Assembly (NCBI GenBank): GCA_038056715.1
Contig: JBBUEZ010000004.1
Coordinates: forward strand, 1-37,575
Reading direction: 5' to 3'
DNA: 37,575 bases
Source of the DNA: Patescibacteria group bacterium
Lineage (GTDB): Bacteria > Patescibacteriota > Minisyncoccia > Phycocordibacterales > JBBUEZ01
A program made the position numbers and the translations under genes. Positions 1-25,883 of the stretch are shown here, in pieces. Below the pieces are notes generated by a model, which saw nothing but the letters and a program-made list of their open reading frames with translations, had not been told where the DNA came from and ran no database searches. Each line of letters starts with the position of its first letter. The first letter of the stretch is position 1.

Positions 1-140
1 TTTTTGGATTTCTGTATTATTTGATTTGGATTAAAAAATTTTCTTCCCCCAAAATTAAAACATGGTTCGAGCTGATGTTTTTCTCCGGGCTCTTTTGCGG
101 TTTTTAGTCGTGCGGCTCCGCCGCGCTTGGGAATTTTTGG

Positions 141-211
141 TGCGGGTGGGGGGAATCGAACCCCCGTCCCAGTCTTGGAAGGACCGCATTCTACCACTAA
201 ACTACACCCGC
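141..211 (-). tRNA. tRNA-Gly (anticodon UCC)
   Basis: The reverse complement GCGGGTG..CACCCGCA folds as a cloverleaf. Anticodon loop is CTTCCAA and T-arm is GGGGGTTCGATTCCCCC. No CCA is encoded. Confidence 0.9.
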
Positions 212-273
212 AATTTGCTAAATATAGCGTATTTTCTCCCCCGCCACAACATAATGTGCGATATAATGCGGGC

Positions 274-1419
274 ATGGTCCGCATTCTGCATATCGGCATA
301 CTTTTTTTTGCGACGTTCTTTACGTTTCTGTTTCTCACTGGCAACCCGATTCGAGAGACATATGTTTCTGCGCCGCCAGCGCCGAAAGAAACAGCGCCGA
401 CAGACCCCAAAACAGAGAGGTCGGATACTGACAAAAAACAAGAAAAAACGACAATCGCCGAAGACACTGCCCGCGCTACGGATGCTGTTTCAAAAATAGC
501 CGAGACAGTTGCCGGTCTCCGGCAAAAAATTGCAGATGTTGTCTCCATGAGCTCCGTACCGCTGCCGTCGCAATCCCCAGAAGAAACCAACGCGGCGGCG
601 CGCGCGGCGCTCGTGAATATCTATTGCGCGACCCAATCAGCGGGGACAACCCGCCTCTCAACGGGAAGTGGCGTCATGATTAACCCGCGCGGCATTATCC
701 TCACGAACGCGCATGTCGCACAACACTTCCTTTTTGAAAACGCGCCTGCGTTCGGAAACACCGACTGCATCATTCGCGCCGGCTCTCCCGCCTCCCCTTT
801 CTACGACGCGGAAATACTTTATATTTCGCCTTCGTGGATAAAAGAGAATGCGGCGGCGTTCAGAGAAGAAAACCCGCGCGGCACCGGCGAAAACGATTTC
901 GCGCTTCTCTATGTCACTCGCTCGCTCAGAAAAGACACTTCTTTGCCGGAGCAATTCCCCTATCTCACACCAGAAACAGACGCCGAGACAATTAGAAAAG
1001 GTGATTCCGTTCTCCTCGCAAGTTATCCTGCAGGATTCTTGGGGAGCATTGCGATACAAAAAGACCTTTATCAAACAAGCACTATAGCCCAAATCAAAGA
1101 ACTGTTCACCTTCAAAGAAAACTCCGTTGACATGTTTTCAGTCGGCGGCAATGTTGTTGCGCAGAAGGGGTCTTCCGGTAGCGGTGCTGTGAGTCTCACA
1201 ACCGGAAAAATCCTCGGCATTGTCGTTACAAGCGGCGAGAGCGAAACAACAGATGGCCGCAACTTACAAGTAATTGTGTTCGCGCACATGTCAGAAAGCA
1301 TGAAAAAGGATGTCGGGTTCACGCTCGAAGAATTCCTTTCCGGAGACCCTTCCGCGGAAGCGGCATCATTCCAGAAAAACGTCTCCCCCGTTCTTCTGCA
1401 ACTATTGAGCGCACAATAA
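274..1419 (+). CDS. Secreted/membrane-anchored trypsin-like serine protease (S1 family, HtrA-like core without an obvious PDZ)
   Basis: Catalytic triad context is LTNAHV, NDFALLYV, GSSGSGAV, after an N-terminal hydrophobic segment. The ATG at 274 is chosen because the longer ORF (127) overlaps tRNA-Gly. TATAAT at 262-267 lies 6 nt upstream. Confidence 0.8.
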   Translation: MVRILHIGILFFATFFTFLFLTGNPIRETYVSAPPAPKETAPTDPKTERSDTDKKQEKTTIAEDTARATDAVSKIAETVAGLRQKIADVVSMSSVPLPSQSPEETNAAARAALVNIYCATQSAGTTRLSTGSGVMINPRGIILTNAHVAQHFLFENAPAFGNTDCIIRAGSPASPFYDAEILYISPSWIKENAAAFREENPRGTGENDFALLYVTRSLRKDTSLPEQFPYLTPETDAETIRKGDSVLLASYPAGFLGSIAIQKDLYQTSTIAQIKELFTFKENSVDMFSVGGNVVAQKGSSGSGAVSLTTGKILGIVVTSGESETTDGRNLQVIVFAHMSESMKKDVGFTLEEFLSGDPSAEAASFQKNVSPVLLQLLSAQ

Positions 1420-1442
1420 AATCCCCACACCAAATTTCATGA

Positions 1443-1467
1443 TCGGGCCGCCGAGATTTGAACTCGG
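1443..1467 (-). other. Orphan tRNA-like 3' fragment (T-arm plus acceptor 3' strand only)
   Basis: The minus strand reads CCGAG-TTCAAAT-CTCGG-CGGCCCG-A. No matching 5' acceptor strand ([CU]GGG[CU][CU]G), D-arm or 7-nt anticodon loop occurs in the 130 nt before tRNA-Pro. Confidence 0.35.
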
Positions 1468-1572
1468 ACTATGCCTACATGAGCAGGTATGCGTGGCGGG
1501 GCGAACCAAATCTGTTAAAAGTTTCCCGTGCGGTTTCCTGCGGAGACTTCCTGTGTTTCTATTTAAAAACTA

Positions 1573-1645
1573 GTCGGGGTACTCGGATTTGAACCGAGAC
1601 TAAATCCTCCCAAAGGACTTGTGCTACCGTTACACTATACCCCGA
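1573..1645 (-). tRNA. tRNA-Pro (anticodon UGG)
   Basis: The reverse complement TCGGGGT..ACCCCGA-C has anticodon loop TTTGGGA and T-arm CTCGGTTCAAATCCGAG. Confidence 0.9.
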
Positions 1646-1814
1646 TTATTTATACCTTTACTGTTTCTAATCTCACTATGTAAAATCCGATGACAATTTG
1701 CGCAAACAACTTCGCATTTCTTTATCTCATTTTTAATACGATCAAAACCTACGGCCCATACTGCTTACAATGCAATGCATCTTACCATTCGCTCTCGGAA
1801 AAAGAAACATAAAC

Positions 1815-1946
1815 CCCCACACCTTTCCTCACATGATGCCCCCATATTTTAACCGGTAACATGTAAATGGGGTTATATGCTCATTAGAAGCCAATTTATT
1901 CTTTAGAATAGAGACGTGTAAAAATAATGTGAGGAAAGGTGTGGGG
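1815..1946. repeat. Perfect 20-bp inverted repeat pair enclosing 92 nt
   Basis: CCCCACACCTTTCCTCACAT (1815-1834) is the exact reverse complement of 1927-1946. The interior has a nested CCCCAT..ATGGGG pairing. Confidence 0.8.
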
Positions 1947-1977
1947 ATAAAGGACAATGTCCTACATAAAGGACATC

Positions 1978-2385
1978 TTAAAGGACAATATTTTTGGTGT
2001 GTCGTACGACCGCTTTCTTCGTCGCCTGGTCAAGAAAGACCGCGATGATCGAGAATTCCCACTCCGTTTCACGTGGAACATTCCTGTCTAACAAATAGGT
2101 CTGAATCGCGCGTTTCAACCGAGCAATCTTATTGCTGTGCACCATCTCCTCTGGAGAAAAGTCGGATGTTTCACGTGAAATGTCCGTACTAGAGATTTCA
2201 CGTGAAACCGTCTTCACCTCAACAAAATGAAGCGTTTCCCTATTCCACGATGTTTCACGTGCAACAATATCCAACTCCCCCCACTTTTTGCGATAATTAC
2301 GCTCAATGATCTCAAAACTCTTACCTTCCAAATATCTTGTCGCAACATCCTCTCCTATAGAACCTACCGTATTATGTTTAGCCAT
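1978..2385 (-). CDS. yraN: YraN-family (UPF0102) predicted endonuclease
   Basis: G-x-x-GE..A..YL, then GELDIVA and FVEVKT motifs, with a C-terminal EFSIIAV strand. This matches the family layout. Confidence 0.8.
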   Translation of the reverse strand: MAKHNTVGSIGEDVATRYLEGKSFEIIERNYRKKWGELDIVARETSWNRETLHFVEVKTVSREISSTDISRETSDFSPEEMVHSNKIARLKRAIQTYLLDRNVPRETEWEFSIIAVFLDQATKKAVVRHTKNIVL

Positions 2386-2635
2386 TTCCTCAAAATACTA
2401 TCACAAAAGGTTTCACGTGTAACACCAACCATTATCAGCCGGCACCCACTCATTTGCCAAGGACAGTCCTTGCTAGACTTATGGGCTAGAATAGGGGGAT
2501 GCCCTAACGCTCTGTCTGGTTGTTATCTGTGCTACGGAAAAGCAAGACAAATAAATACTAAACTAATCAACCTACAGAAACGGAAAAATCTCAATAAAAC
2601 CACCTCCACCCCCCTTCAAATGTCTCACGTGAAAC
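2066..2635. repeat. Six dispersed copies of a (G)TTTCACGTG(AAA) motif
   Basis: Copies lie at 2066-2075, 2168-2180, 2196-2208, 2252-2261, 2410-2419 and 2626-2635 (inverted). Two are perfect 12-bp palindromes TTTCACGTGAAA. I saw only two other CACGTG sites in the whole window. Confidence 0.85.
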
Positions 2636-2673
2636 ACTCCAAAGTGTTTCTTAAGAAACACTTTGGAGTGTTT
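2632..2673. repeat. Perfect 42-bp palindrome
   Basis: AAACACTCCAAAGTGTTTCTT|AAGAAACACTTTGGAGTGTTT was checked base by base. It overlaps the sixth CACGTG motif copy and is followed by an AT-rich tract. Confidence 0.9.
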
Positions 2674-2746
2674 TGATTAAAACGACATAAAAGTCCTTAT
2701 TTAAAGCCATTTTATTGGACTTTTAATATCTAATAAAAGTCGTCCT

Positions 2747-2775
2747 TTATACACATGTCCACCGAGTTATCCACA
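2747..2775 (+). promoter_or_regulatory. Two DnaA-box-like 9-mers in direct orientation
   Basis: TTATACACA (2747-2755) and TTATCCACA (2767-2775) both fit TTATNCACA. They sit next to an AT-rich stretch at 2675-2745. Confidence 0.35.
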
Positions 2776-2924
2776 GTTTTGGACGTTTTCCGCCTTATTC
2801 CTGCGTTTCGTGTCTTTCATTTTTCCCAATCATGTTGTGAGATTTAGTGTCCTTGATACCTCTCTCTATGCTATATATAAATGGCCGCCGCTTACGCGAC
2901 GACCATTGTCTGCTTTTTTGGTCA

Positions 2925-3131
2925 TTAGCCGCGGCGAATTCCTCCGCCGCCAATAGGATGTTTCTCAAGGACATCGCTGATGTCCCCGTAGTAACAATCC
3001 TGGTTGACCTCCGCGCCGTTGATAGTAGGACGCTTACCATCAACGCGTGGCTCAAGCGGATTTCCACAACCACAGCCGCACACCTTCTTTCGCGGCGGAA
3101 GATCCGCCGCATCTTTCAACGATAAAGTCAT
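2925..3131 (-). CDS. Small Cys-containing hypothetical protein (68 aa, CGCGCG motif)
   Basis: GGAGGAGG lies 8 nt upstream of the ATG. The start overlaps the stop of the upstream small ORF (ATGA). Confidence 0.6.
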   Translation of the reverse strand: MTLSLKDAADLPPRKKVCGCGCGNPLEPRVDGKRPTINGAEVNQDCYYGDISDVLEKHPIGGGGIRRG

Positions 3132-3289
3132 CGCGAGATCCTCCTCCAGAAGTGTCGTATTACCTCGCGCCGTTTCCGGCGATACTTCGCACCCATACTA
3201 TCAATACTCATGCGGGTAAAGGGGTGAAAAAAGAGCCACATGATCCAAATCACCTCTTCAAATGCCCGCCGCGCATAAGAACGCAACAT
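3128..3289 (-). CDS. Small basic protein with one hydrophobic segment (53 aa; below the ORF-track cutoff)
   Basis: AAGGAGGG lies 7 nt upstream of the ATG. Hand translation gives MLRSYARRAFEEVIWIMWLFFHPF... The TGA overlaps the next ATG. Confidence 0.5.
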   Translation of the reverse strand: MLRSYARRAFEEVIWIMWLFFHPFTRMSIDSMGAKYRRKRREVIRHFWRRISR

Positions 3290-3574
3290 TATTGAACCCT
3301 CCTTAACAAGGTTTCGGTTGTGATGCTCGCCTATGCCGACTATACCCGCTTTCTATTTGACAAGCAACGTGCGCATTTTTATTGGAAGCGGCCAGAATAC
3401 CCCGTCCGCTTGGCGGCGGGGATGAATGGCCGCATAATGAATTGTGCGCCCGGTGGGGCGCGCCTTGCCAACAAAGTTTTCCCGGTGCCCCGCCTCATAC
3501 CCCGCCCTAGTACTCCGAGGGAACCGCTTGCGGCGGGGATAGGACGGGGCAAATTTTATGAGTTAAAAAGGATC

Positions 3575-3605
3575 GGCAAACCGCACGAGTTTGCCTCGTT
3601 TTTTT
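3575..3605. terminator. Hairpin with T-runs on both sides (bidirectional terminator downstream of tRNA-Gly-GCC)
   Basis: GGCAAAC-cgcacga-GTTTGCC is followed by TCGTTTTTTT on the plus strand and GATCCTTTTT on the minus strand. Confidence 0.55.
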
Positions 3606-3606
3606 G

Positions 3607-3677
3607 TGCGGGCAAGGGTAATCGAAACCCTGTCTCGTCCTTGGCAAGGACGCGTTCTACCACTGAACCATGCCCGC
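3607..3677 (-). tRNA. tRNA-Gly (anticodon GCC)
   Basis: The reverse complement GCGGGCA..TGCCCGC-A has anticodon loop TTGCCAA and T-arm AGGGTTTCGATTACCCT. Confidence 0.9.
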
Positions 3678-3687
3678 AATGTGCGTG

Positions 3688-3716
3688 ATTATAGCCGATA
3701 ATCTTCTTTGTCTCAA
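3688..3716 (-). promoter_or_regulatory. Sigma-70-like promoter for tRNA-Gly-GCC
   Basis: The minus strand reads TTGAGA, a 17-nt spacer, then TATAAT. The -10 ends 10 nt before the mature tRNA 5' end. Confidence 0.55.
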
Positions 3717-3755
3717 ACTGTTGGCATATATGCGGTGCTCGCACTCTTTTATTTC

Positions 3756-3790
3756 ATATCATACCAAACACTCGGTGTTTGGTATGATAT
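3756..3790. repeat. Perfect 16-bp-stem hairpin (ATATCATACCAAACAC-tcg-GTGTTTGGTATGATAT)
   Basis: Its 19-nt core AAACACTCGGTGTTTGGTA recurs identically at 15718-15736. Confidence 0.85.
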
Positions 3791-3944
3791 CATGAGGACC
3801 GCGAGTACGCTTATCGGTCCTTACAGGACCAGTACACCTTTCGCATCGTGCTCGTGCTACTCCGCGCGATATGCTCAAGGTCTTCAATTCCTCACGCCGC
3901 GCGCGCAAGCGCGCGGCTACTCGGTCATTTTCGCTTCGCTCAAA

Positions 3945-4016
3945 TGCCCTCATGAGGAATCGAACCTCAATTACAAGCTTCGGAAGCTTGCGTCCTATCC
4001 GTTGAACGATAAGGGC
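3945..4016 (-). tRNA. tRNA-Arg (anticodon CCG)
   Basis: The reverse complement GCCCTTA..TGAGGGC-A has anticodon loop TTCCGAA and T-arm TGAGGTTCGATTCCTCA. Confidence 0.88.
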
Positions 4017-4059
4017 TCTTTGGTGTTGGTGTCCGTTGAACGACGGGGAACTATCAAAA

Positions 4060-4132
4060 TGCGCCCGGCAGGAATCGAACCCACAACCCTCTGCTTCGAA
4101 GGCAGATGCTCTATCCGTTGAGCTACGGGCGC
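4060..4132 (-). tRNA. tRNA-Arg (anticodon UCG)
   Basis: The reverse complement GCGCCCG..CGGGCGC-A has anticodon loop CTTCGAA and T-loop TTCGATT. Confidence 0.88.
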
Positions 4133-4194
4133 AGAATATTATTGCATCATAACGCGGAATTTGGAAATGGGCAAAAATACGATACAATGCCAGC

Positions 4195-5682
4195 ATGAAA
4201 CTATTCTCTGTTCCGAAAGAAATTGAAAATGTAACGGGGGCCCTGCAAGAAGCTGGATTTCAAGCGTATTTGGTTGGCGGATGCGTGCGCGATATGGTCC
4301 GCGTGGAGAAACCGAAAGATTGGGACGTGGCAACGGATGCAACGCCTGATGAAATTCAAAAAATATTTCCACATGCATTCTATGAGAATGAATTTGGAAC
4401 TGTTGGCGTGGTAAATGATCCCTCGACTGGCTCGGGACAGGCGATAGATGAGACGCTGAAAGTCGTGGAAGTCACGCCGTTTCGCATAGAAGGGAAATAC
4501 ACGGACGGAAGGCGTCCGGACACGGTGCATTGGAGCAAACATTTGAGCGACGATTTGAAGCGGCGCGATTTCACGATGAACGCAATCGCGTATGACCCGA
4601 CGGAAGACAAACTTGTTGACCCGTTTGGCGGGCAGGCGCATATCAAAGACAAGATGATTGTTGCGGTGGGGGAACCGGAAGAACGATTCGCGGAAGATTA
4701 TCTTCGCATGCTTCGCGCGGTGCGATTTTCCGCGGAACTGGGGTTTGCGATAGAAGTGCGCACGATGGACGCAATTCGCGCGCATGCGAAAAATATCACG
4801 GCGGTCTCCGCGGAGCGCGTGCGTGAAGAATTTTCAAAACTCGTGATGTCGGCGCGCCCGAAAGAGGGAATTGAGATCGCGCATGAACTGGGCATCTTGG
4901 CGCATATCGCGCCGGAAATGGAAAAGGGGATTAGCGTGGAGCAAAACGGCGACCACATCTACGACGTGTGGGAACACAATCTTCGCGCGCTCCAGCATTC
5001 CGCGGATAGGCAGTGGCCACTTCAGGTGCGGCTTGCCGCGATGCTCCATGATGTATCCAAGCCGGAAACAAGGCGGTGGTCAAAAGAAAAAAATGACTGG
5101 ACGTTCTACGGACATGATGTGGTGGGCGGTCGCGTTGCGCGAGAGGTTTTGACACGGCTCAAATATCCGAAAGAAATTGTGGAGAATGTGTCCAAACTGG
5201 TGCGCTATCATCTTTTTTTCAGCGATATTGAAAAAATTACGCTCTCCGCGGTGCGGCGCATCGTTTCTAATGTCGGTCCCGAACTTGTGTGGGACCTGAT
5301 GGACGTGCGCGCCTGCGACCGAATAGGCATGGGACGCCCGAAAGAAACGCCGTATCGCCTGCGCAAATATCACTCTATGATAGAAGAGGCGATGCGCGCG
5401 CCGGTATCTGTGGGAATGCTTAAAATTGACGGCGCGAAAATTATGGAAATAACCCACGAGAAACCGGGGCCTCGCTTGGGCTGGATACTCCACGCGCTTT
5501 TGGAGGGTGCGCTTGAAAATCCCGATATCAATACGGAGGATGAAATGGCATCGCGCGCGCTGACACTTGCAAAACTTTCCGACACGGAATTACGCGCGAT
5601 AGGGGAGGCAGGCAAAGTAAAAAAAGAGCAGGAGGAAAAAAAGGAATTGGAAGAAATCAGAAAGCGATATGGAGTAAAATAG
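4195..5682 (+). CDS. cca: CCA-adding tRNA nucleotidyltransferase with HD domain
   Basis: N-terminal LVGGCVRD..DWD polymerase-beta motif, an RRDFTMNA motif, and an HD region (HDVSKP, YGHD). TACAAT lies 6 nt before the ATG, with TTGGAA at the -35 position. Confidence 0.9.
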   Translation: MKLFSVPKEIENVTGALQEAGFQAYLVGGCVRDMVRVEKPKDWDVATDATPDEIQKIFPHAFYENEFGTVGVVNDPSTGSGQAIDETLKVVEVTPFRIEGKYTDGRRPDTVHWSKHLSDDLKRRDFTMNAIAYDPTEDKLVDPFGGQAHIKDKMIVAVGEPEERFAEDYLRMLRAVRFSAELGFAIEVRTMDAIRAHAKNITAVSAERVREEFSKLVMSARPKEGIEIAHELGILAHIAPEMEKGISVEQNGDHIYDVWEHNLRALQHSADRQWPLQVRLAAMLHDVSKPETRRWSKEKNDWTFYGHDVVGGRVAREVLTRLKYPKEIVENVSKLVRYHLFFSDIEKITLSAVRRIVSNVGPELVWDLMDVRACDRIGMGRPKETPYRLRKYHSMIEEAMRAPVSVGMLKIDGAKIMEITHEKPGPRLGWILHALLEGALENPDINTEDEMASRALTLAKLSDTELRAIGEAGKVKKEQEEKKELEEIRKRYGVK

Positions 5683-5782
5683 GAAAAGAAAAAAGTTTAG
5701 AAAAATAATGGAGCATGGCGGAATATATTTTTCTAAACCCCGCCATAATTTTACCGCCAGAAGATCATGAAATCAGACTACG

Positions 5783-5818
5783 TTAGACAAACAGTAACGG
5801 CCGTTACTGTTTGTCTAA
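5783..5818. repeat. Perfect 36-bp palindrome
   Basis: The sequence is TTAGACAAACAGTAACGG|CCGTTACTGTTTGTCTAA. Confidence 0.85.
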
Positions 5819-5912
5819 AGTTATAGATTGTATACGTTAAGCATGACAAATATACCACCCCTTGTCGGGCGAAGCGCGACGCCGTAAACTTACAAGTAAA
5901 ATTAGGGCGGGG

Positions 5913-5951
5913 GAATTGGCGGAAATTAGGAAAAGGTATGGGGTGAAATAA
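5913..5951 (+). repeat. Reiterated cca 3' end, copy B (encodes ELAEIRKRYGVK*)
   Basis: It aligns codon for codon with 5644-5682. The differences leave the encoded peptide nearly unchanged (one residue differs). Confidence 0.8.
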
Positions 5952-5953
5952 TT

Positions 5954-6961
5954 ATGAAATACTCATTTTCAAAAATATTCCTGGCGGTAATGTTAATCTT
6001 CTTTGCCTCCGATGTTAGTCTTGCGCAAACACAATATAAATATAGTTCTCTCAAGGAGATTTTTGAAAACTCCGATTCCTACAATAATAAAAATGTTTCT
6101 ACCGGAGGGACTGTTTCTGAAATATTGGATTCTGCAACTCTTAGTGGATCAAGGTATATTTTTGGTTTTTGGATGATTGATGAAAATAAAAATACAATAC
6201 GCGTTGTAAGTGCTGATAATATGGTTTTAATTGATGGAAATGTTGTAATAGTTGATGGTAGGTATTACAAAAGATTATATGCCGATGACCTCAATTTTGA
6301 TGACACAATTGTTGCTTCGGGTGATAATATACAAGTCGTTTTAACTGCTAGTGAGTTGTGGAATGACATACTTGGTCCATTTGGAGAATCTTTGAATATT
6401 GGCGATAGGCTAGCAACCAAAAATGAGTCCTTACAAAAAAGAAGTATTGTTCTTGCAGCCTTAATCCCATTGTTTACGGCCGGAGCGTTTTATCTCGGCC
6501 TTATATTTTACAAACGAAGACAGTTTAAAGGGAGAAGCTTTGAGGGGTATGTGGAAAGCCTTTTCCGCAATAACAAGGAATGGAGAGTGGGGCAAGATAA
6601 TTCATACAGAAAACTGCGGAAAGGGTGGGTGGAATCCTATGGCAATCCTGACTTTGTATTTATTCACCGGAGAACGAATCAAAAAATAGCGGTGGAATGC
6701 AAATATAAAGAAAAGGAATACGAGAGAATTTTTTGGGCTGACGAGAATCAAATTGAACGTTACCAAGATTTTTCTGCTAAAGAAAAAATGCCGGTCCTTG
6801 TGATTATTGGGGTTGGTGGCAGACCAAAGAATCCAAAAAGGATGTTTTTTGCGCCACTAGATAAGATTAAATATCCCGATGTAAAAATGGATTATCTGCA
6901 AAAGTTTGAGCGAGACCCGAGAAAACCTCTCTCGCTTGATAGTAATGGGAAGTTGGTTTAA
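5954..6961 (+). CDS. Signal peptide + extracytoplasmic beta-rich domain + TM + cytoplasmic PD-(D/E)xK nuclease-like domain
   Basis: The signal peptide is MKYSFSKIFLAVMLIFFASDVSLAQ and the TM is IVLAALIPLFTAGAFYLGLIFY. The nuclease-type motif is NPDFVF..IAVECKYK (D..ExK). The gene is visibly AT-rich. Confidence 0.65.
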   Translation: MKYSFSKIFLAVMLIFFASDVSLAQTQYKYSSLKEIFENSDSYNNKNVSTGGTVSEILDSATLSGSRYIFGFWMIDENKNTIRVVSADNMVLIDGNVVIVDGRYYKRLYADDLNFDDTIVASGDNIQVVLTASELWNDILGPFGESLNIGDRLATKNESLQKRSIVLAALIPLFTAGAFYLGLIFYKRRQFKGRSFEGYVESLFRNNKEWRVGQDNSYRKLRKGWVESYGNPDFVFIHRRTNQKIAVECKYKEKEYERIFWADENQIERYQDFSAKEKMPVLVIIGVGGRPKNPKRMFFAPLDKIKYPDVKMDYLQKFERDPRKPLSLDSNGKLV

Positions 6962-6988
6962 TAAAATCGCCCTTTCTTGAAGAAGATA

Positions 6989-7221
6989 TTATTTCTTGAG
7001 CAATAATTTCAATTCATCAACAGAAAGTCGCGCTTGTTTCATTATTTCTTTGAGTAGCCAGCGGGGAATATCTTTTGCGTGATAGGGAATAGTTGCGTAT
7101 CTACGCGAATCGGTCGCATGTTGAAGTCTAATATGGCTTCCTGTTTGGCGAACAATTTTAAAGCCCCCCTTGAGGAGGGCCTGATGAGTATTCGCGCGGT
7201 AACGATTGGAACAATGCTCAT
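6989..7221 (-). pseudogene. hicA: HicA-family toxin gene with a 1-nt frameshift
   Basis: The ATG frame gives MSIVPIVTARILIR. The HicA body (ALLKGGFKIVRQTGSHIRLQH..IPYHAKDIP..) continues in another frame with no start codon of its own. The span is 233 nt, not a multiple of 3. The shift lies near 7180. Confidence 0.7.
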
Positions 7222-7541
7222 GCGAATCTTTTTGAAGACGCTGGAGAAATGGGAGAGAGAACGCGCGAACGCGGAATTTTTCCTATTGCCAGATTATTAT
7301 CATCCACAATCACTTTCCCCTCAACGATCAAACAGTCACAGTGAAGTTCTATCGCGTCTTTTGCCATTTTTTTAGCCACAGCAAACGTTTTCCCAAAGGT
7401 TGCAACTCCCGGCAAACTTGACACTTTGACAAGATACGCCCTATCCTTTGTGTCATACCAAATAGTGGTTTTATAAGAACCTTTTTTGTGGAAACGAGAA
7501 TATTTTTTTTCTGTTGTTTTTTCATGTCGCAATCGTATCAA
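7218..7541 (-). CDS. hicB: HicB-family antitoxin (start uncertain)
   Basis: It has the HicB-like core YKTTIWYDTKDRAYLVKVSSLPGVATFGKTF..AKDAIELH. The only in-frame starts are TTG (7541 or 7532). The stop overlaps the hicA ATG (ATGA). Confidence 0.65.
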   Translation of the reverse strand: MIRLRHEKTTEKKYSRFHKKGSYKTTIWYDTKDRAYLVKVSSLPGVATFGKTFAVAKKMAKDAIELHCDCLIVEGKVIVDDNNLAIGKIPRSRVLSPISPASSKRFA

Positions 7542-7603
7542 GATAAAACCACGCGCGCAACGCCGTTTTGATACATGAAATCCCTTGTGCAAAACACGGC
7601 ACA

Positions 7604-7621
7604 CGCTACGGGGTGAAATAG
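7604..7621 (+). repeat. Reiterated cca 3' end, copy C (truncated, RYGVK*)
   Basis: It lies within a 23-mer, ACGCTACGGGGTGAAATAGAAAA (7602-7624), that is identical to 8988-9010. Confidence 0.75.
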
Positions 7622-7625
7622 AAAA

Positions 7626-7643
7626 GGGGCACATATGTGCCCC
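7626..7643 (-). terminator. Intrinsic terminator of the 121-aa gene
   Basis: The perfect hairpin GGGGCACATATGTGCCCC is followed on the minus strand by TTTTCTATTTC. Confidence 0.6.
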
Positions 7644-7650
7644 CTCATTC

Positions 7651-8016
7651 CTAAAAAAACGTGATGAACAACTCAAATTTCTCGAATGGCTCTGCGAGCA
7701 GTACAGTTACTCTGTCACACCCGTGGTGGTCATAGAATACTATCTTCTCGTCACCGATTATCGTGCTTATAACATTCCCTTCTGAAACTTCTGAAAACAA
7801 AGTCAGCTCCGGATACTTATACACGGCACACAAAAAGTATGCATGTAGCCCAAAACCAGGATGGCCACATGTCGGATCAGAGCCATTAGACCGAATCTGG
7901 GCTTCTATTAGACGCCCATTATTATGTAGGGTGATGACTTCTTTCTCATTTTTTCTCACCCCTAACATTTCGGAGAACTCTTTTATGCCCACACACCTAC
8001 TATTTAAGCGTCGCAT
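7651..8016 (-). CDS. Hypothetical protein (121 aa), no family recognised
   Basis: AAGGAGGA lies 5 nt upstream of the ATG, and the gene has its own terminator. Confidence 0.6.
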   Translation of the reverse strand: MRRLNSRCVGIKEFSEMLGVRKNEKEVITLHNNGRLIEAQIRSNGSDPTCGHPGFGLHAYFLCAVYKYPELTLFSEVSEGNVISTIIGDEKIVFYDHHGCDRVTVLLAEPFEKFELFITFF

Positions 8017-8168
8017 CGTAATCCTCCTTCTTTAGGAACATACTAATTTATATTTTACACACAAGGAGAATTTTTGTCATTTTTGTCGTCATAATACATA
8101 AAACATTGACATTTTCTATTGAAATATAATATACTCGTGTTGTCGCTTTTTTAGACATCTTTTGAGAA

Positions 8169-8927
8169 ATGGGAGAAACTAAACATTTATCTTTGCTTAC
8201 TGATCTCGGACTTTCGACAAACTCGGCGGAAATATACCTTGCGTCGCTTTCGCTTGGACCATCATCCATCCTTTTTTTAGCGCGCGAAACCGGCATAAAA
8301 CGCACTACCATTTATTCAATCGTGGATGATCTTATACGAAAAGGGCTAATGCGGATTGAGGTGAGAGGATTTAAGAAATTTTTTGCTGCTGAAAACCCAG
8401 AAAGGCTCGAGCATATGCTTGAGCTGCGGCAAAAACAAATTGGGAAATTCTTGCCCGAACTTCAGGCCCTTTATAATCTCAAAAAGGGTGAGAGTATCAT
8501 TAAATATTACGACGGTCCGGAAGCAGTAAAATCAGTATACGAGGAGATTCTCCGAGAGATACAGCCGCACGAAGAATATTTGAGTGTCGGGAACCCGACA
8601 CAGTGGTTTCCCTTGGACGCAAGATATCTTGAGAATTTTATGGAGCGAAGAGCTGAGTTGTCTCGCGGGCTTAATTTTACTATTCGCTTGTTGCTAAAAG
8701 AATCAGAAAAGGCGTTTGATCTAAAAAAATATGAGAAGAATTACAATGAGAAGATAAAGATATTGCCTAAGGATGTGTCGTTTTCAAGCAATCTTATCAT
8801 CTTGCAACGCAAAATTGTCATCCACCAGCTCACTGCGCCGATCAAGGCAATTGTGGTTGAAAATGAAAGCACCGCTCAATTGCAGCGAGAGTTATTCAAT
8901 ATTATTTGGAGATCCATTGGCGAATAG
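8169..8927 (+). CDS. TrmB-like winged-helix transcriptional regulator
   Basis: The N-terminal HTH is LGLSTNSAEIYLASLSLGPSSILFLARETGIKRTTIYSIVDDLIRKGL, followed by the extended C-terminal domain typical of TrmB. An upstream TTGACA is followed by an A/T-rich TATAAT-like stretch. Confidence 0.75.
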   Translation: MGETKHLSLLTDLGLSTNSAEIYLASLSLGPSSILFLARETGIKRTTIYSIVDDLIRKGLMRIEVRGFKKFFAAENPERLEHMLELRQKQIGKFLPELQALYNLKKGESIIKYYDGPEAVKSVYEEILREIQPHEEYLSVGNPTQWFPLDARYLENFMERRAELSRGLNFTIRLLLKESEKAFDLKKYEKNYNEKIKILPKDVSFSSNLIILQRKIVIHQLTAPIKAIVVENESTAQLQRELFNIIWRSIGE

Positions 8928-8952
8928 TGCCACGGGATCAAAAATAAGTTTG

Positions 8953-9007
8953 GCAGAAAGAGGAAAAAGAATTGGCAGAGATTAGAGAACGCTACGGGGT
9001 GAAATAG
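8953..9007 (+). repeat. Reiterated cca 3' end, copy D (encodes QKEEKELAEIRERYGVK*)
   Basis: In-frame translation parallels the cca C-terminus KKEQEEKKELEEIRKRYGVK*. Confidence 0.8.
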
Positions 9008-9414
9008 AAAAACCGGCGCGCTTTTGGCGACACCGGTTCGTTGTTGGCTGGAAGTACCCGAGGAACGCGCAATGGCTCCTCCGCGTCTCGTTGCACCCGA
9101 AACCGTGAGTGAAACATCTAGCGGGACGCGCCCGCGCTTTCGCTCCGCGGCAGATGGCTTTGCCACCATGCCGACTCCGCTCGTCATCACTCATTCTCCC
9201 ACAACCCATTGCGTAAGAATAAGCGAGAAAGCGGTGCCGCTACTTTGCGAATCGGGGTTTTACCCTCTCCCGCGCTTAATGGCGCGCATACTGATTGCAA
9301 TGAGGGATCGTCAGTCCTTAGTCGCCTCTTGCGAGACGAATACGAGCGTTCGCTCGGCATGACTAGGCGCCGTTTGGCGCCTGCGCTCACTGCAAATTCT
9401 TAAACTCAAAACTA
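9004..9414 (-). ncRNA. Candidate structured non-coding RNA of about 400 nt, class unknown
   Basis: It has its own promoter (9421-9448) and a terminator hairpin at 9011-9038 followed by a U-run. There are many hairpins. The GCAA tetraloop and the G-U pairs exist only in the minus-strand reading. No convincing ORF or RBS is present. Confidence 0.45.
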
Positions 9415-9420
9415 TTTTCA

Positions 9421-9448
9421 ATGATACACTAAACGCCATTCCTGTCAA
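9421..9448 (-). promoter_or_regulatory. Sigma-70-like promoter (TTGACA, 16 nt, TATCAT)
   Basis: Read on the minus strand. It drives transcription into the GC-rich 9004-9414 segment. Confidence 0.55.
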
Positions 9449-9547: not shown

Positions 9548-10159
9548 ATGACGATGGACATTTCAGGTTTCCGCGCGCCGCATTTGGGCAAGCGCGTGGT
9601 CCCAGAGTATCTACGCCGTGAGGCGCCGGCGAAGAAGGCGTCGGCACCCGCGCCAAAAGTGATGTCCACGGAGGAGCGGGTTGTCCACTTCTTCCGCTGG
9701 GCGAGGAACGGGGCGACCTCTCAGCAGTTGGAGGGTCTCGCCCGCGACCTCGGCATCACCGAAAACATGGAAGTGAGGCGGACGCTCCGCAGGATGCAGC
9801 CGCTCACGACCGGCCAGAAGGTTGGTCGATTCTTCGCCCTCGCCTCCGAGGATGACGCGAAAGCGGTGGACTTGCTCCACCAGGCGAAGCGAGATGAGAT
9901 TCTTCACATCCGCATCGTCCGCGATAAGATTGCGGACGTGGAGGAACGCAGCCTTCGTCCGAAGAAGTACGGGTTGCGGGAAGCGATCCTCGCGGCGGGG
10001 AAGTTCATCCCGCCGACCGAAGTCGCCGTGAAGAAAGAGGATCGCCCGACCAATGTCGGGAATCCTCGCGGGAAGGGTCCGGGCGGCTCAAAGCCGGGGC
10101 AATCATCCAATCCGGAGACCGCCGCAAAGCGCGCAAGGAAGGCCGCCCAGCGGAAGTAA
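9548..10159 (+). CDS. Hypothetical protein with a Lys/Arg/Gly-rich tail
   Basis: GGAGGAGG lies 6 nt before the ATG at 9548. The annotated ORF start (9464) lies inside the promoter. The gene is GC-rich compared with its neighbours. Confidence 0.6.
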   Translation: MTMDISGFRAPHLGKRVVPEYLRREAPAKKASAPAPKVMSTEERVVHFFRWARNGATSQQLEGLARDLGITENMEVRRTLRRMQPLTTGQKVGRFFALASEDDAKAVDLLHQAKRDEILHIRIVRDKIADVEERSLRPKKYGLREAILAAGKFIPPTEVAVKKEDRPTNVGNPRGKGPGGSKPGQSSNPETAAKRARKAAQRK

Positions 10160-10827: not shown

Positions 10828-11688
10828 TTACCACGTCTCCAATTCCATCACAATCGGACAATGGTCCGAGCCGTACACGTCGGAGAGGATTTTGGTTCCA
10901 CGCACTTTTGGCAGAAGATTCTGCGACACGAAAAAATAATCTATGCGCCAGCCGACGTTGCGGTGGCGAGCACGCGTTTTCATATCCCAGTAGGTGTAGG
11001 CATCCTTTTTGTTCGGATTGAAATGCCGAAATACATCTGTGTAGCCGTGGTAGACGACCTCATCAATCCATGCGCGTTCTTCGGGAAGAAAGCCTGTGCT
11101 CTCTTCATTCTCTTTCGGTCGCGCGAGGTCAACGCTCTCGTGCGCGGTGTTGATGTCACCGCAGAATATGATACTTTTTTGCCTTGCCCGACCATCTTTA
11201 GATGGTTTAGGGTTGCGAAGCAGTTCTATATGTTCTAAAAACGCATCATAAAAATCCCGTTTATATTTAAGCCGCGCGGGTCCGCCGCCGCCGTTTGGAA
11301 AGTAGACGTTTAACAACACGAAGTCGTCATAGTGCGCGGCGAGCAGACGTCCTTCCGTATCAAACTTTTTCACATCCCCTAAATCACCGGCAAAGCCGGT
11401 GATCGGGCGAGCGCTTTTTTGAAGCGCTTTAGCCATACCATATTCCACCTTTTTGGGTTTCTCTTTCGTGTAAATCGCAACGCCCGAGTATCCTTTTTTC
11501 TCGTGTGGAGAATTGAAATACGCGTGATAGCCGGAAATATTTTTTATTTCCTCCGGCAATTGCTCCTCGCGCGCTTTCACTTCCTGCAAACACAAAATAT
11601 CCGGCTTTTCTTTTTTGATGAACTCCAAAAACTGTCCGCGTTTGTGCACTGCGCGGAGACCGTTCACGTTCCATGAGATGAGTTTCAT
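10828..11688 (-). CDS. xth: Exodeoxyribonuclease III (AP endonuclease, EEP fold)
   Basis: Motifs are MKLISWNVNGLRA, CLQE, GDxN.A, DxxR and a C-terminal SDHCP. The start is at 11688, with TATAAT 9 nt upstream. Confidence 0.88.
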   Translation of the reverse strand: MKLISWNVNGLRAVHKRGQFLEFIKKEKPDILCLQEVKAREEQLPEEIKNISGYHAYFNSPHEKKGYSGVAIYTKEKPKKVEYGMAKALQKSARPITGFAGDLGDVKKFDTEGRLLAAHYDDFVLLNVYFPNGGGGPARLKYKRDFYDAFLEHIELLRNPKPSKDGRARQKSIIFCGDINTAHESVDLARPKENEESTGFLPEERAWIDEVVYHGYTDVFRHFNPNKKDAYTYWDMKTRARHRNVGWRIDYFFVSQNLLPKVRGTKILSDVYGSDHCPIVMELETW

Positions 11689-11714
11689 ACCGGATTGATT
11701 ATACCATCCGTAGA

Positions 11715-11758
11715 CCCCCCCACGTATACGGTACCATGGTACCGTATACGTGGGGGGG
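11715..11758. repeat. Perfect 44-bp palindrome capped by C7/G7 runs
   Basis: CCCCCCCACGTATACGGTACCAT|ATGGTACCGTATACGTGGGGGGG was verified base by base. Confidence 0.9.
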
Positions 11759-11759
11759 G

Positions 11760-11793
11760 GTAACGCCCCTCCGCGACTGCGGAGGGGCGTTAC
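11760..11793. repeat. Perfect 15-bp-stem hairpin
   Basis: GTAACGCCCCTCCGC-gact-GCGGAGGGGCGTTAC has a T-run only on the plus-strand side. Confidence 0.85.
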
Positions 11794-11797
11794 ATTT

Positions 11798-12088
11798 TTA
11801 TTTTGTTTGGATTCTTTTTTTGATAAGTTCATACACCACTGACCGATGTTCAATCAAAACCACGATGACCATGCTGTTACCAATACGAAAAACAACCCGA
11901 TAATCTCCGACGCGTAGAACGCGGTGCGATTTAAAAGAATAGCGGAGCGGCTTTCCAAAAATTTCCGGATGCGTTCTCAACTTATGATCAATGGCGTGTA
12001 GAATCTTCTCTCTCCACACGCGAGAAATCTTCGGAACGTCACTCTGTAGTACCGCCTCATGAAAGACTATTTCGTAAACTCCTTCCAT
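11798..12088 (-). CDS. RelE/ParE-family type II toxin
   Basis: The core is GDYRVVFRI..VIVVLIEHRSVVY. It overlaps the upstream antitoxin gene by 22 nt. Confidence 0.8.
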   Translation of the reverse strand: MEGVYEIVFHEAVLQSDVPKISRVWREKILHAIDHKLRTHPEIFGKPLRYSFKSHRVLRVGDYRVVFRIGNSMVIVVLIEHRSVVYELIKKRIQTK

Positions 12089-12300
12089 GCTTGCTTATAG
12101 GGAATATATTTCGCCCCTTTTACGTCGCGCTTCGCCGCAATCTCGGTCAACGCACGGTCTTCTTCAAGTTCAAACGCGAATTGGAGCATTTCTGCCGCTT
12201 TTGTGGCCTCGGGGACACGATCCCGTCTGGCAAGAAACTTTAGCCCTTTTTCAAGGTCTGACGAAAGCGTTATATTGATTCTTTTCTTGATTGTGGACAT
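12067..12300 (-). CDS. Ribbon-helix-helix (CopG/RelB-like) antitoxin
   Basis: The N-terminal KKRINITLSSDLEKGLKFLA is typical of an RHH beta-strand plus helix. Confidence 0.72.
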   Translation of the reverse strand: MSTIKKRINITLSSDLEKGLKFLARRDRVPEATKAAEMLQFAFELEEDRALTEIAAKRDVKGAKYIPYKQAWKEFTK

Positions 12301-12666: not shown

Positions 12667-12717
12667 TGTCTTCCGGGTGATACATTTTGTAACGGCCGTT
12701 ACTACATGTGTCAGAGA

Positions 12718-13632
12718 TTATTTTCGGCGTTTGCCATGAAACGCTTTGTGCACTTCTTTCAATTCTTTGTCAGTCACGTGCGTATAAATCTGCGTCGTCT
12801 GGATACTGGAGTGTCCCAAAAGCATTTGCACCGCGCGGAGGTCGGCGCCATTGCCCAAAAGGTCGGTCGCGAATGTGTGACGCAAAACGTGCGGGGTTAC
12901 TTTTTTTGAGATACCAGCTTTAATTGCGTAGTGTTTCACAATCCTCTCCACGGAGCGCGGAGTGAGCCGCGAAGATTTAGAATTTGAGATTTTAGATTTG
13001 AGATTTGAGATATGTACAAACATCGCCTCGTCCATATCTGTGCGTTTCGCGAGGTAAACGCGGAGCGCCGCTTGCGCCTCCGATGAAACAAATACGACGC
13101 GCACTTTCTCGCGTTTCCCGCGCACCGAAAACTCTCCGCGCGCAAAATCAAGATCGCGGTCCAAGGAACAGAGTTCGGACACGCGAAGTCCGGTGGAAAA
13201 AAGAAGTTCCATCATGGCGCGGTCGCGCAGAGATTTCACGTCGGCGCCATCGGGGGCACGAAGAAGTCGCGCGAGGTCGTCGGGAGAAATGAGGTCCAGT
13301 TCGCGCTCGCCGACCGAGGCCAGTTCTATCCGCTCCGGCGGAAGGGAAGGAACGCCGCGCTTGGCGAGATATTTCAAAAACATCCGGAGCGCTATCAAAT
13401 AATAGTTTTGTGTTCGTTTTTTCAGCGTCCCTTCATCGCGAGCGGGGGAGCGGTTTAATTTGAGACGAAACTCGCGCACGGCGTCGTCGGTAATATCGGA
13501 CGCTTTTTTGATTCCCGCCATGTCAATAAAACGGTTCATGTAGCGACCGTAGTTTTCCACCGTTTTTAAACTGCGTCCTTTCTCAATTTCCAGATATTCC
13601 AAAAATTGGCGTTGGAGAGAGTGGATGTCCAT
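12718..13632 (-). CDS. Tyrosine site-specific recombinase, XerC/XerD-like
   Basis: It has an N-terminal SAM-like domain (LEYLEIEKGRSLKTVENY). The C-terminal catalytic motifs are HVLRHTFAT and LLGHSSIQTTQIYTHV. Confidence 0.88.
   Translation of the reverse strand: MDIHSLQRQFLEYLEIEKGRSLKTVENYGRYMNRFIDMAGIKKASDITDDAVREFRLKLNRSPARDEGTLKKRTQNYYLIALRMFLKYLAKRGVPSLPPERIELASVGERELDLISPDDLARLLRAPDGADVKSLRDRAMMELLFSTGLRVSELCSLDRDLDFARGEFSVRGKREKVRVVFVSSEAQAALRVYLAKRTDMDEAMFVHISNLKSKISNSKSSRLTPRSVERIVKHYAIKAGISKKVTPHVLRHTFATDLLGNGADLRAVQMLLGHSSIQTTQIYTHVTDKELKEVHKAFHGKRRK
12973..13014. repeat. Six imperfect tandem heptamers (AGATTTG type) inside the recombinase CDS
   Basis: AGATTTA GAATTTG AGATTTT AGATTTG AGATTTG AGATATG encodes the low-complexity ISNLKSKISNSKSS insert. 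Confidence 0.8.
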
Positions 13633-15575: not shown

Positions 15576-15604
15576 TCGTAAATGGGGGGTGTGGTTATAG
15601 ACAC

Positions 15605-15648
15605 AAAAAACCCCCGCGCTCGCCATATGGCGAGCGCGGGGGTTTTTT
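15605..15648. terminator. Bidirectional rho-independent terminator
   Basis: An A-run precedes CCCCCGCGCTCGCC-atat-GGCGAGCGCGGGGG, and a T-run follows. Confidence 0.8.
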
Positions 15649-15713
15649 GTTATAGTGCTTTCATTATTGATAATCCGTTTGCGGGCAAATAGATAGAATT
15701 GGAAATGTGTTAT

Positions 15714-25175: not shown

Positions 25176-25883
25176 ATGACGCGAAAAATATCTTTCTCTG
25201 TTGGAGAATATTATCATCTATATAACCGAGGGGTTGATAAAAGAAATATATTTGCAAATAAAAATGACTACGGCCGTTTTACCGCTCTTTTATATTTATG
25301 CAACTCTTCTAAACCGATTAATATAAGCAAACATTTTGATCGAAAACGTTCCTTTCAAGAACTATTCGTGGTGCCACGCAAAAATACCCTGGTCGAAATC
25401 GTGTCATACTGCCTGATGCCGAACCATTTTCATATTCTCGTGTATGAAAAAAGAGAGAGCGGAATTAGTAGGTTTATGCAAAAATTATCAACCGCATACT
25501 CCATGTATTTCAACGTGAAAAGAGGAAGAACGGGAGGATTGTTCGAAGGAACCTTCAAAGCAAAACACATCGACACAAATCCGTATCTGCTTTATGTGAC
25601 TTCGTATATCCACCTTAACCCAATAAAACTTATAGACACAAAATGGAAAGAAAACGGGATTAGAGATAAAAAAGCGGCAAGATCATATTTGCACCAATAT
25701 CCGTATTCTAGTTTTTTGGATTATGTTGGTAAAAAAAGAAAGGAAGGAAACATTATTGAACCGCGTTTCTTACAAGATACGCGCACGCCCAATTCATTTG
25801 AGGAGTTTGTGGGGGAGTGGTTATCAAATGATGCCTCGGATTTGGCCGAGGTTAAGCCTCGGCTAAATAATAAGCAAACCTAA
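25176..25883 (+). CDS. IS200/RayT-like HUH Y1 tyrosine transposase
   Basis: Motifs are YHLYNRG, the HUH motif CLMPNHFHILV, and YIHLNP with a Tyr near the C-terminal helix. TGaTATAAT lies 6 nt before the ATG. The gene is AT-rich relative to its flanks. Confidence 0.75.
   Translation: MTRKISFSVGEYYHLYNRGVDKRNIFANKNDYGRFTALLYLCNSSKPINISKHFDRKRSFQELFVVPRKNTLVEIVSYCLMPNHFHILVYEKRESGISRFMQKLSTAYSMYFNVKRGRTGGLFEGTFKAKHIDTNPYLLYVTSYIHLNPIKLIDTKWKENGIRDKKAARSYLHQYPYSSFLDYVGKKRKEGNIIEPRFLQDTRTPNSFEEFVGEWLSNDASDLAEVKPRLNNKQT
25841..25863. repeat. REP-like hairpin element at the 3' end of the Y1 transposase gene
   Basis: TTTGGCCGAGGTTAAGCCTCGGC has a 7-bp stem and a 5-nt loop. Confidence 0.6.

Follow-up and report, generated by a model that had tools for sequence, protein, structure and literature searches.

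How does the 3' end of an essential gene come to be repeated several times along a chromosome, and what are the genes found between the repeats? The question is raised by cca, the gene of the CCA-adding tRNA nucleotidyltransferase, in a Paceibacterota (Parcubacteria) genome of the candidate phyla radiation (CPR) from the Hainich groundwater observatory. The whole stretch of DNA analysed, hereafter the window, comprises 37,575 nucleotides (contig JBBUEZ010000004.1), and the nearest named relatives of its proteins are Paceibacterota. An initial annotation had attributed the repeated ends either to serial insertion at the 3' end of cca by elements carrying a surrogate gene end or to repeated allelic replacement at a hotspot. 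Our results give good support to serial insertion with replacement ends, by a reaction that may be either site-specific or a matter of recombination and replacement at the hotspot. The region 5683-8953 is probably a strain-variable tandem array of three horizontally acquired cassettes stacked at a hotspot in the last ~25 codons of cca. Its DNA has been inserted, foreign gene ends travel with their cargo, the array varies from strain to strain and comparable arrays recur in other species.

The first element of the answer is the nature of the repeats. The C-terminus EKELAEIRKR(Y/H)(G/W)VK, followed by the stop, is conserved in the cca family (family consensus EKELAEIRKRYGVK, stop), and the cca of the window, which comes after five tRNA genes of the other strand, is complete and has a consensus-type end. 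Four copies of this end, called A to D, lie on the strand of cca, A being the resident one (Table 1). The bases that differ from A amount to 10 of 39 in B, 9 of 39 in D and 4 of 18 in C (22-26%), yet the amino-acid changes are only 1, 2 and 0, respectively, and the stop is always kept. Random substitution retained the peptide and the stop in none of 200,000 trials from A to B (<5e-6), and the corresponding values are 3.7e-4 from A to D, 7e-5 from B to D and 1.3e-3 from A to C. Since the repeated peptide is the conserved cca C-terminus, kept despite the divergence of the bases, the copies are former functional cca ends, and they diverged under protein-level (coding) selection. At least 29 of 39 matches to A occur three times on the + strand of the window and never in 200 locally shuffled windows, and the copies are nearest to the ends of the closest relatives (32-34 of 39 bases). 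An identical 23-mer is common to C and D (7603-7625 = 8989-9011). The initial annotation had described the positions and strand of the four copies, their divergence at about a quarter of positions with an almost unchanged peptide, the common 23-mer and the minus-strand terminator hairpins beside C (7623-7646) and D (9012-9036), the former now recovered by a terminator scan; all of this is borne out, save that the in-frame start of D is 8954 and not 8953. It had also made its case depend on the copies being closer to real cca 3' ends than to shuffled controls, which is what the family consensus, the closest relatives and the shuffled windows indicate.

The rarity of such ends elsewhere was assessed by scoring, in the six frames of all the fetched loci, the 12 residues that precede each stop codon. 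Out of 186,986 stops, 105 reach at least 8 bits, and nearly all of these are real cca ends or + strand copies downstream of cca. A loose 5-residue motif has 10 non-cca matches, 7 of them on the + strand downstream of cca, and a sparse background elsewhere. Among 88 metagenome pattern matches, the relevant ones are limited to L110, L156 and L159 (found via cca homology) and L143 (found via the cca-end scan), the remainder being chance. Within cca itself, sliding identity to four relatives and sliding GC content at third codon positions (GC3) reveal no clear mosaic breakpoint, only a generally variable 3' region.

The comparison with close relatives provides empty sites. In three genomes whose cca proteins are 83-88% identical to that of the window (L001, L002 and L003), a single cca end is directly followed by native downstream sequence, in the order trypsin-like protease, UPF0102, tRNAs, cca, 1-1.7 kb of mostly non-coding GC-rich DNA, xth, xer, rpsO, NYN and pnp. 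The same sequence is found in the window to the right of D: positions 9292-9397 are 76% identical to L003 11515-11617, which begins 45 nt past the L003 cca stop, and the first post-cca gene of L001 has a homologue in the 203-aa gene at 9548. Because these relatives carry one cca end and then the sequence found right of D, 5683-8953 is an insertion. Its composition is also foreign, and the AT-richness that the initial annotation had noted is borne out: GC is 0.36-0.44 in the island against 0.52-0.56 in cca and 0.52-0.63 right of D, and GC3 goes from 0.33 to 0.45 in the island genes but from 0.55 to 0.58 in cca, xth, xer and pnp.

The array further varies between sister strains. A contig from another Hainich well (L143) matches window 5599-5954 at 99.2%, a segment that includes A, the non-coding segment and B. 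The 3 mismatches in these 356 nt are all synonymous and all located in copy B, and divergence is complete right after the B stop. Beyond this point, L143 contains in order a GrpB gene, whose open reading frame (ORF) runs in frame into the next cca end (EEKKELEGIRKRYGVK, stop), then a 102-nt 3' fragment of the 335-aa gene of the window, a Fic gene and the C/D core, which forms the contig end. The whole array of the window is 99.96-100% identical in L004 (ENA contig Hain_PNK108_H32, 99.96% identical to the window), L177 and L181, which come from the same aquifer but were obtained from separate samples with different assemblers. Two more samples have yielded contigs that match the window exactly and end at the 5790 palindrome and inside the D core (8997), as is expected of points at which assembly graphs branch.

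In other species, displaced cca ends were searched for in 80 species-representative Paceibacterota genomes and in some metagenome contigs. On the cca strand and downstream of cca, they are present in at least 5 of the 80 species genomes (L009, L010 with three copies, L018, L038 and L021), and further in L110, L156 and L174. Two pairs of loci allow occupied and empty sites to be compared. In L028, cca is followed by a hairpin and xth; in L018, 91% identical to it, a polyprenyl-synthase cassette comes after cca, then a displaced end carrying the hairpin seen in L028, and finally another ORF and xth. In the second pair, the homology between L009 and the empty L030 stops ~70 nt before the resident stop of L009 and resumes at the displaced end into the downstream gene, so the inserted block of L009 consists of a ~70 nt replacement cca end plus a non-coding mini-element described below. 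The initial annotation had held that its interpretation would fail if all relatives carried the same repeats and genes; they do not, given the empty L001-L003, the different cassettes of L143 and these two pairs. A cca end stands before the Fic cassette in every case. It is functional in L038, whereas those of L010, L143 and L021 have decayed through a frameshift, an insertion or the loss of a codon. The decayed end of L010 is of the RYGVK type, though the host cca ends in RHWVK. Nearest-neighbour identity is decisive in telling native from imported ends in L009/L030 and L010, and these two cases show directly that the elements carry a surrogate gene end, as had been proposed. The gene-proximal ends are intact and the distal ones decayed, which fits serial insertion beside cca. 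Perfect repeats flank some of the cassettes, with 23 nt for C/D, 29 nt in L010 and ~28 nt in L018.

The cassette next to the resident end, which had been described as a segment with hairpins only, is indeed non-coding and belongs to a conserved structured mini-element that has been found only at this site, in four species. Its fold z-score is -6 on both strands. Homologous mini-elements directly follow the cca stop in L009, L110 and L156, with a displaced cca end next to each of them. All four are alike in having a spacer, a hairpin (GTTTAGAAAAATAATG...TATTTTTCT) and a 13-17-bp helix closing a variable middle, which in the window contains a 42-nt palindrome (5780-5821). The left part of the mini-element is 81% identical between the window and L156, against only 57% for the 150 nt of cca beside it. 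Where the signature GTTTAGAARAATAA comes after the cca stop, the locus always has an insertion, and no insertion-free locus shows it there; its first 14-16 nt are also present in L018 and L159. In the window and in every other locus, the only copy of the mini-element is at the cca stop. This distribution is best explained by a non-autonomous structured element specialised for the cca site. A miniature inverted-repeat transposable element, which would have terminal inverted repeats, a short identical target-site duplication and many dispersed copies per genome, was considered and rejected: on its left side the inverted repeat does not reach the end, the repeats that flank the mini-element measure 30-60 nt and are non-identical, and the only copy is at the cca stop. 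Rfam has no family match for the mini-element or for the non-coding unit at 9008-9448; only tRNAs reach the gathering score, and the best sub-threshold E value is 0.26. The palindrome 5780-5821 may itself be an insertion, as it is absent from the mini-element homologues of other species. Loop-less perfect or near-perfect intergenic palindromes of 36-48 nt are also found elsewhere in the window (2632-2673, 11715-11758, 15603-15650 and 12678-12713), and the one just past the xer stop (12678-12713) has a common centre, GTAACGGCCGTTAC, with that of the mini-element.

Table 1 Features of the cca locus, with positions in the window
Feature	Position	Strand	Basis or remark
cca, CCA-adding tRNA nucleotidyltransferase, target gene	4195..5682	+	Pfam PolyA_pol, PolyA_pol_RNAbd, HD; ~8000 homologues
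Copy A, resident functional cca end (ELEEIRKRYGVK, stop)	5644..5682	+	GC3 0.25 vs 0.56 for whole cca
Cassette 1, non-coding structured mini-element	5683..5912	.	Spacer, hairpin 5696-5737, domain closed by 17-bp helix 5738-5754/5896-5912
Copy B, displaced cca end (ELAEIRKRYGVK, stop), first element of cassette 2	5913..5951	+	Clade-consensus peptide
335-aa secreted or membrane protein, weak PD-(D/E)xK-like C-terminal domain, cassette 2	5954..6961	+	Pfam PDDEXK_11 E=1.3e-3, below cut-off; GC3 0.33
hicA toxin pseudogene, frameshift near 7175-7180, cassette 2	6993..7221	-	Reconstructed protein HicA_toxin E=7e-18
hicB antitoxin, cassette 2	7218..7525	-	HicB_lk_antitox E=4e-6
Copy C, truncated displaced cca end (RYGVK, stop; 7604-7621) within 23-nt core	7603..7625	+	Core identical to part of D
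Hairpin beside C, terminator of 121-aa gene	7623..7646	-	Terminator scan
121-aa protein, cassette 3	7651..8016	-	No Pfam, NCBIfam or PADLOC match
TrmB-family regulator, recurrent partner of cca ends, cassette 3	8169..8927	+	Pfam TrmB
Copy D, displaced cca end (QKEEKELAEIRERYGVK, stop), adjoining native downstream DNA	8954..9007	+	Closest to L001 end, 43/54
Native flank, GC-rich ORF-free non-coding unit (~400 nt) between D and 203-aa gene	9008..9448	-	Promoter 9448-9421, terminator hairpin 9012-9036 then UUUUU
Xer-type tyrosine recombinase, convergent to cca, far border of variable interval behind xth (10828-11853)	12718..13632	-	Pfam and NCBIfam XerD/XerC/XerA

The genes of cassettes 2 and 3 (Table 1) are those that had been recognised initially. 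The gene content described for cassette 3 stands, and the 121-aa protein has no family match; that of cassette 2 stands as to the genes present, but the PD-(D/E)xK call is weak, hicA is frameshifted and the start of hicB is doubtful. Homologues of the 335-aa protein, which are 44-76% identical and in some cases match DUF234, are found elsewhere in other genomes and not at cca, and the more distant TrmB homologues are likewise sited away from it; given these contexts, both genes were captured and are not bound to the site. The hicA frameshift falls after codon 14, and the start of hicB is either the ATG at 7525, combined with a frameshift in an A8 run near 7505, or that of a 138-aa ORF beginning at an ATG near 7634, inside the hairpin adjacent to C. 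Both features are real because they are identical in four assemblies (the same hicA frameshift is found in L004, L177 and L181), and the hicAB toxin-antitoxin pair appears to be decaying. The hairpin adjacent to C is probably the former cca terminator of the cassette's source. In cassette 3, a predicted divergent promoter pair (8052-8135) lies between the 121-aa gene and the TrmB gene. This promoter is conserved in L174, together with a 72%-identical TrmB homologue that is immediately followed by a displaced cca end. TrmB is also present in the L010 array and, overall, in 5 of 30 intervals between cca and xer. In another bacterium, three TrmB-family paralogues are found within 8 kb (L176, 5798-13349), among AAA_14/DUF4143, radical-SAM and nucleotidyltransferase-HEPN genes. 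This cluster suggests that the family tends to sit in variable, defence-like regions.

The array occupies only part of a longer interval, the far border of which is the xer gene. The native flank right of D has a near-consensus promoter (TTGACA-16-TATCAT), a fold z-score of -3.8 and no Rfam match at E<=1. GC-rich, structured-looking blocks are seen in the same interval of relatives (L003 11515-12400, L001 11540-11700 and L002 3210-3560), and such post-cca blocks may be CPR non-coding RNAs without a known family. The tyrosine recombinase at 12718-13632, which the initial annotation had placed outside the island as the nearest one, is a syntenic housekeeping Xer and not an island gene. It is the convergent neighbour of cca in ~60 of the 80 species and is syntenic in L001-L003, with xth between the two genes where present. 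The distance from the cca stop to xer ranges from 4 bp (L075) to 7 kb among 86 loci, the window having the largest. The convergent pairing is kept phylum-wide, with or without cassettes, so that cca and xer are an unusually stable gene pair around a variable interval. Between xth and xer, the window also has a ParE/RelE-type toxin gene overlapping an antitoxin gene (11798-12300, minus strand). Since L001-L003 lack this pair at the corresponding position, the interval has gained genes at more than one point. On the other side of cca, cumulative GC skew (window 1-4200) reaches a minimum near 4000 and then rises. The minimum coincides with the boundary between the tRNA cluster and cca, at which the genes change orientation, and is no more than a possible strand-switch point. 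Farther away, an ORF at 25176-25883 (+) has a Y1 (IS200-like)/REP-associated tyrosine transposase domain (Pfam E=7e-9; NCBIfam REP_Tyr_transpos below cut-off), and a similar gene adjoins a homologue of the 335-aa protein in L183. This putative transposase was considered as a possible actor on the hairpins and set aside, nothing tying the ORF to the cca site.

These observations can be assembled into the following probable scenario. Incoming DNA would recombine with the resident cca end and bring its own copy of this end, usually a terminator and then its cargo. Because the incoming DNA supplies its own gene end, the essential cca would stay intact, and the former end would be pushed downstream, remaining there as a fossil border. 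The newest cassette would then be the one beside cca, and D would be the end adjoining the native flank. Once several ends are present, they would provide portable homology, and cassettes could be swapped between strains by recombination within the ends. Cassettes 2 and 3 represent accessory, defence-like cargo, made up of a nuclease-like membrane protein, the decaying hicAB, and the TrmB regulator with its small gene.

Several observations weigh against this scenario. The initial annotation had reported no integrase inside the island, and the Pfam, NCBIfam and PADLOC scans of the island ORFs agree: no integrase, transposase or other recombinase was found in any of the more than 12 cassettes, nor among the 25 most frequent Pfam families of the 111 ORFs in the cca-xer interval of 30 species. 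As the cassettes are without a recombinase gene of their own, the reaction must be provided in trans. In IMG/VR, neither the cca alignment nor a degenerate cca-end pattern nor the TrmB cargo retrieved an episomal or viral form with a cca end, within what are limited collections. The 5' extent of the displaced ends goes from 6 to 24 codons and varies for the same cargo (7, 8 and 15 codons for Fic); this variation and the in-frame fusion of GrpB to a cca end in L143 are unexpected for a precise reaction at an attachment (att) site, and on inspection the repeated core has no dyad symmetry. Copy A matches the L002 end at 34 of 39 bases and D the L001 end at 32 of 39, all the copies of the window being clade-typical; A and D are thus equally near the ends of relatives, and which copy is the original is not readable from similarity alone. 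Finally, in every genome the resident and the displaced ends have final five residues that match by lineage, which is not what a freely moving surrogate end predicts.

Which activity could have produced the array is therefore best considered among several candidates. A site-specific recombinase, presumably acting in trans on the cca end as its att site, with the cassettes behaving like cis-mobilizable elements (CIMEs), could well be responsible, although we would stop short of calling it probable. In favour of such a reaction are the confinement of all the junctions to the last 24 codons, the perfect repeats of 23-29 nt that flank some cassettes and the spread of the mini-element across clades.

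Homology alone is a serious possibility too, if not a probable one. In that case, the units would be nothing else than the native "cca end + terminator + downstream genes" of other strains, taken up as DNA by natural transformation and recombined in a RecA-dependent manner, with an anchor in cca and a far end joined illegitimately before the resident end; in a variant, a tandem duplication would be followed by allelic replacement, and neither version needs a dedicated element or recombinase. The units do resemble native cca-downstream blocks, most of the ends being followed by their own terminator hairpin, and the same cargo is found directly after a functional cca elsewhere (Fic in L038, TrmB in L008). 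The varying junction positions, the ORF fused to a cca end and the lack of a recombinase in cis all agree with this possibility, and so does the recombination breakpoint between the window and L143, which falls inside copy B. Natural competence is documented in Saccharibacteria, another CPR lineage (PMC10187176). Nevertheless, all of the ~14 right junctions lie in the last 24 of the 495 cca codons and none further upstream, a restriction that unguided illegitimate joining would not produce. The mini-element is moreover found in clades whose cca genes have 57-70% nucleotide identity, too diverged for efficient anchoring, whereas the element ends are 81-95% conserved, and the perfect 23-29 nt repeats around some cassettes are equally difficult to reconcile with homology alone.

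An integron-like capture without a dedicated integrase appears unlikely. The last ~20 codons of cca would in that case be a reiterated site, of which each small cassette has one copy, and cassettes would be inserted beside cca and excised or shuffled by a trans-acting enzyme, possibly Xer, and the mini-element would be a minimal "empty" cassette or site module. Less likely still is that the convergent Xer itself drives the process, by recombining the cca end or an overlapping site on behalf of integrase-less elements, in the manner of integrative mobile elements exploiting Xer (IMEX) or of dif modules, and as CTX-type elements exploit dif. The idea is suggested by the convergent xer being next to cca in most of the species, at 4 bp to 7 kb, by the location of every cassette between the two genes, and by the lack of an integrase in the cassettes, as in IMEX, next to a recombinase of the generic XerD/XerC/XerA type. 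Yet the 23- and 29-nt cores lack, on inspection, the two-arm dyad symmetry of Xer sites, a dif-consensus scan found no canonical dif-like site near cca in any locus, the synonymous sites of the cca end vary freely between species, unlike a protein-binding site, and the synteny holds in the great majority of species without cassettes.

It is very improbable that the ends were duplicated in place, by slippage or as a long target-site duplication made by a transposase-like or Cas1-like integrase, and then drifted. The L018 copies, near-identical save for a 7-nt deletion, do look like a fresh target duplication, and insertion is polarised to the gene-proximal copy. However, a base divergence of 22-26% with a kept peptide is incompatible with the neutral drift of a dead copy, and this coding-type divergence supports the initial view that the copies are not slippage products. 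The clade consensus is also found in the displaced copies and not in the resident one, whose residue 3 is E instead of A/S, the end of the L010 cassette is of a foreign clade type, and Pfam and NCBIfam scans of the island ORFs and of a subset of the window ORFs found no Cas1 or DDE transposase. As for a chimeric contig joining strains at a repeated sequence, repeats do confuse assemblers, and some contigs of this aquifer are interrupted at the palindrome (5790) and in the D core (8997), but the chance of such an artefact is negligible given the 99.96-100% identity of the array in L004, L177 and L181, obtained from different samples and assemblers, and the comparable arrays of unrelated public genomes.

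The tandem accretion of horizontally acquired cassettes at the cca end is of interest for the biology of its hosts. The CPR, or Patescibacteria, have tiny genomes and few recognised mobile elements, and their gain of accessory and defence genes is poorly understood. The cca locus is a concrete route for such gains, with toxin-antitoxin, Fic, nuclease-like and regulator cassettes stacked at the end of an essential gene in several species and differing between sister strains. If a trans-acting enzyme is at work, the cca end would be a natural landing pad for genetics in the CPR, which are only now becoming tractable, and the mini-element would represent a new class of site-specific non-autonomous element. 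Should homology suffice by itself, a short conserved gene end can serve as a portable homology arm. Either way, displaced gene ends are a simple, searchable marker of such hotspots in metagenomes.

Among known systems, the closest pattern is the tandem accretion of CIMEs at the 3' end of a protein gene, for instance in the islands related to ICESt1/ICESt3 at fda in Streptococcus thermophilus. CIMEs are defined by the lack of integration and transfer genes and stack in tandem, entering at an att site that includes a gene end, according to a three-step model (PMC5704250). The cca cassettes have the same repeats containing a gene end, the same lack of integration and transfer genes and the same tandem stacking. 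Contrary to CIMEs, no cognate autonomous partner with an integrase for the cca site, whether an integrative and conjugative element (ICE), an integrative and mobilizable element (IME) or a phage, was found in IMG/VR or in the 30 variable intervals, which are limited collections; besides, the cca cassettes are very small (0.23-1.7 kb), their repeats extend over 6 to 24 codons and their host is a CPR bacterium. Islands of the SGI1 (Salmonella genomic island 1) family insert at the 3' end of trmE, and their tandem arrays are documented (PMC8409611, PMC2297512). The cca insertions are likewise found in tandem at the 3' end of the gene of a tRNA-related enzyme, but SGI1 has its own integrase and a fixed att core, and the cca array has neither.

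The replacement-end logic is also that of the islands of tRNA and tmRNA genes, in which the incoming DNA brings a new distal part for its target gene and the far border is marked by the original part that it has displaced. Unlike them, cca offers a protein-coding end conserved as a peptide and not as nucleotides, and no integrase is present at either border. When compared with integrase-bearing islands and prophages in general, the locus has repeated gene ends with a full-length cca, empty sites in relatives (L001-L003, L028 and L030) and a foreign composition but no integrase beside a border. The resemblance to integrons lies in the polarised array of small cassettes, the reiterated site, the newest cassette by the insertion point, one ORF-less folded unit and a tyrosine recombinase bordering the array. 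There is, however, no IntI, which would have an integron-specific extra domain and be encoded next to attI: the neighbouring recombinase scores 233-246 bits as XerD/XerC/XerA against 128 as an integron integrase (cut-off 265), and it sits at the distal end of the array. On inspection, the borders also lack the R and L boxes of attC sites (RYYYAAC, GTTRRRY), and the cassettes have their own promoter-like sites and both orientations, where those of integrons are mostly promoterless and oriented alike. With IMEX and dif modules the cca array shares the integrase-less cassettes between short repeated sites and a nearby xer gene, but the sites of those systems have two ~11-bp inverted arms and a 6-8 bp spacer, whereas the cca repeats are not dif-like and have no dyad symmetry. 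Homology-facilitated illegitimate recombination during natural transformation is similar in its one-sided anchor (here cca), variable far junction and lack of an element enzyme; it deletes recipient DNA and joins at scattered positions, while the cca junctions all lie within ~75 nt and the recipient end is retained. The cca array is thus a known kind of genomic island, new in its recombinase-free cassettes, its dedicated non-coding mini-element and its CPR host.

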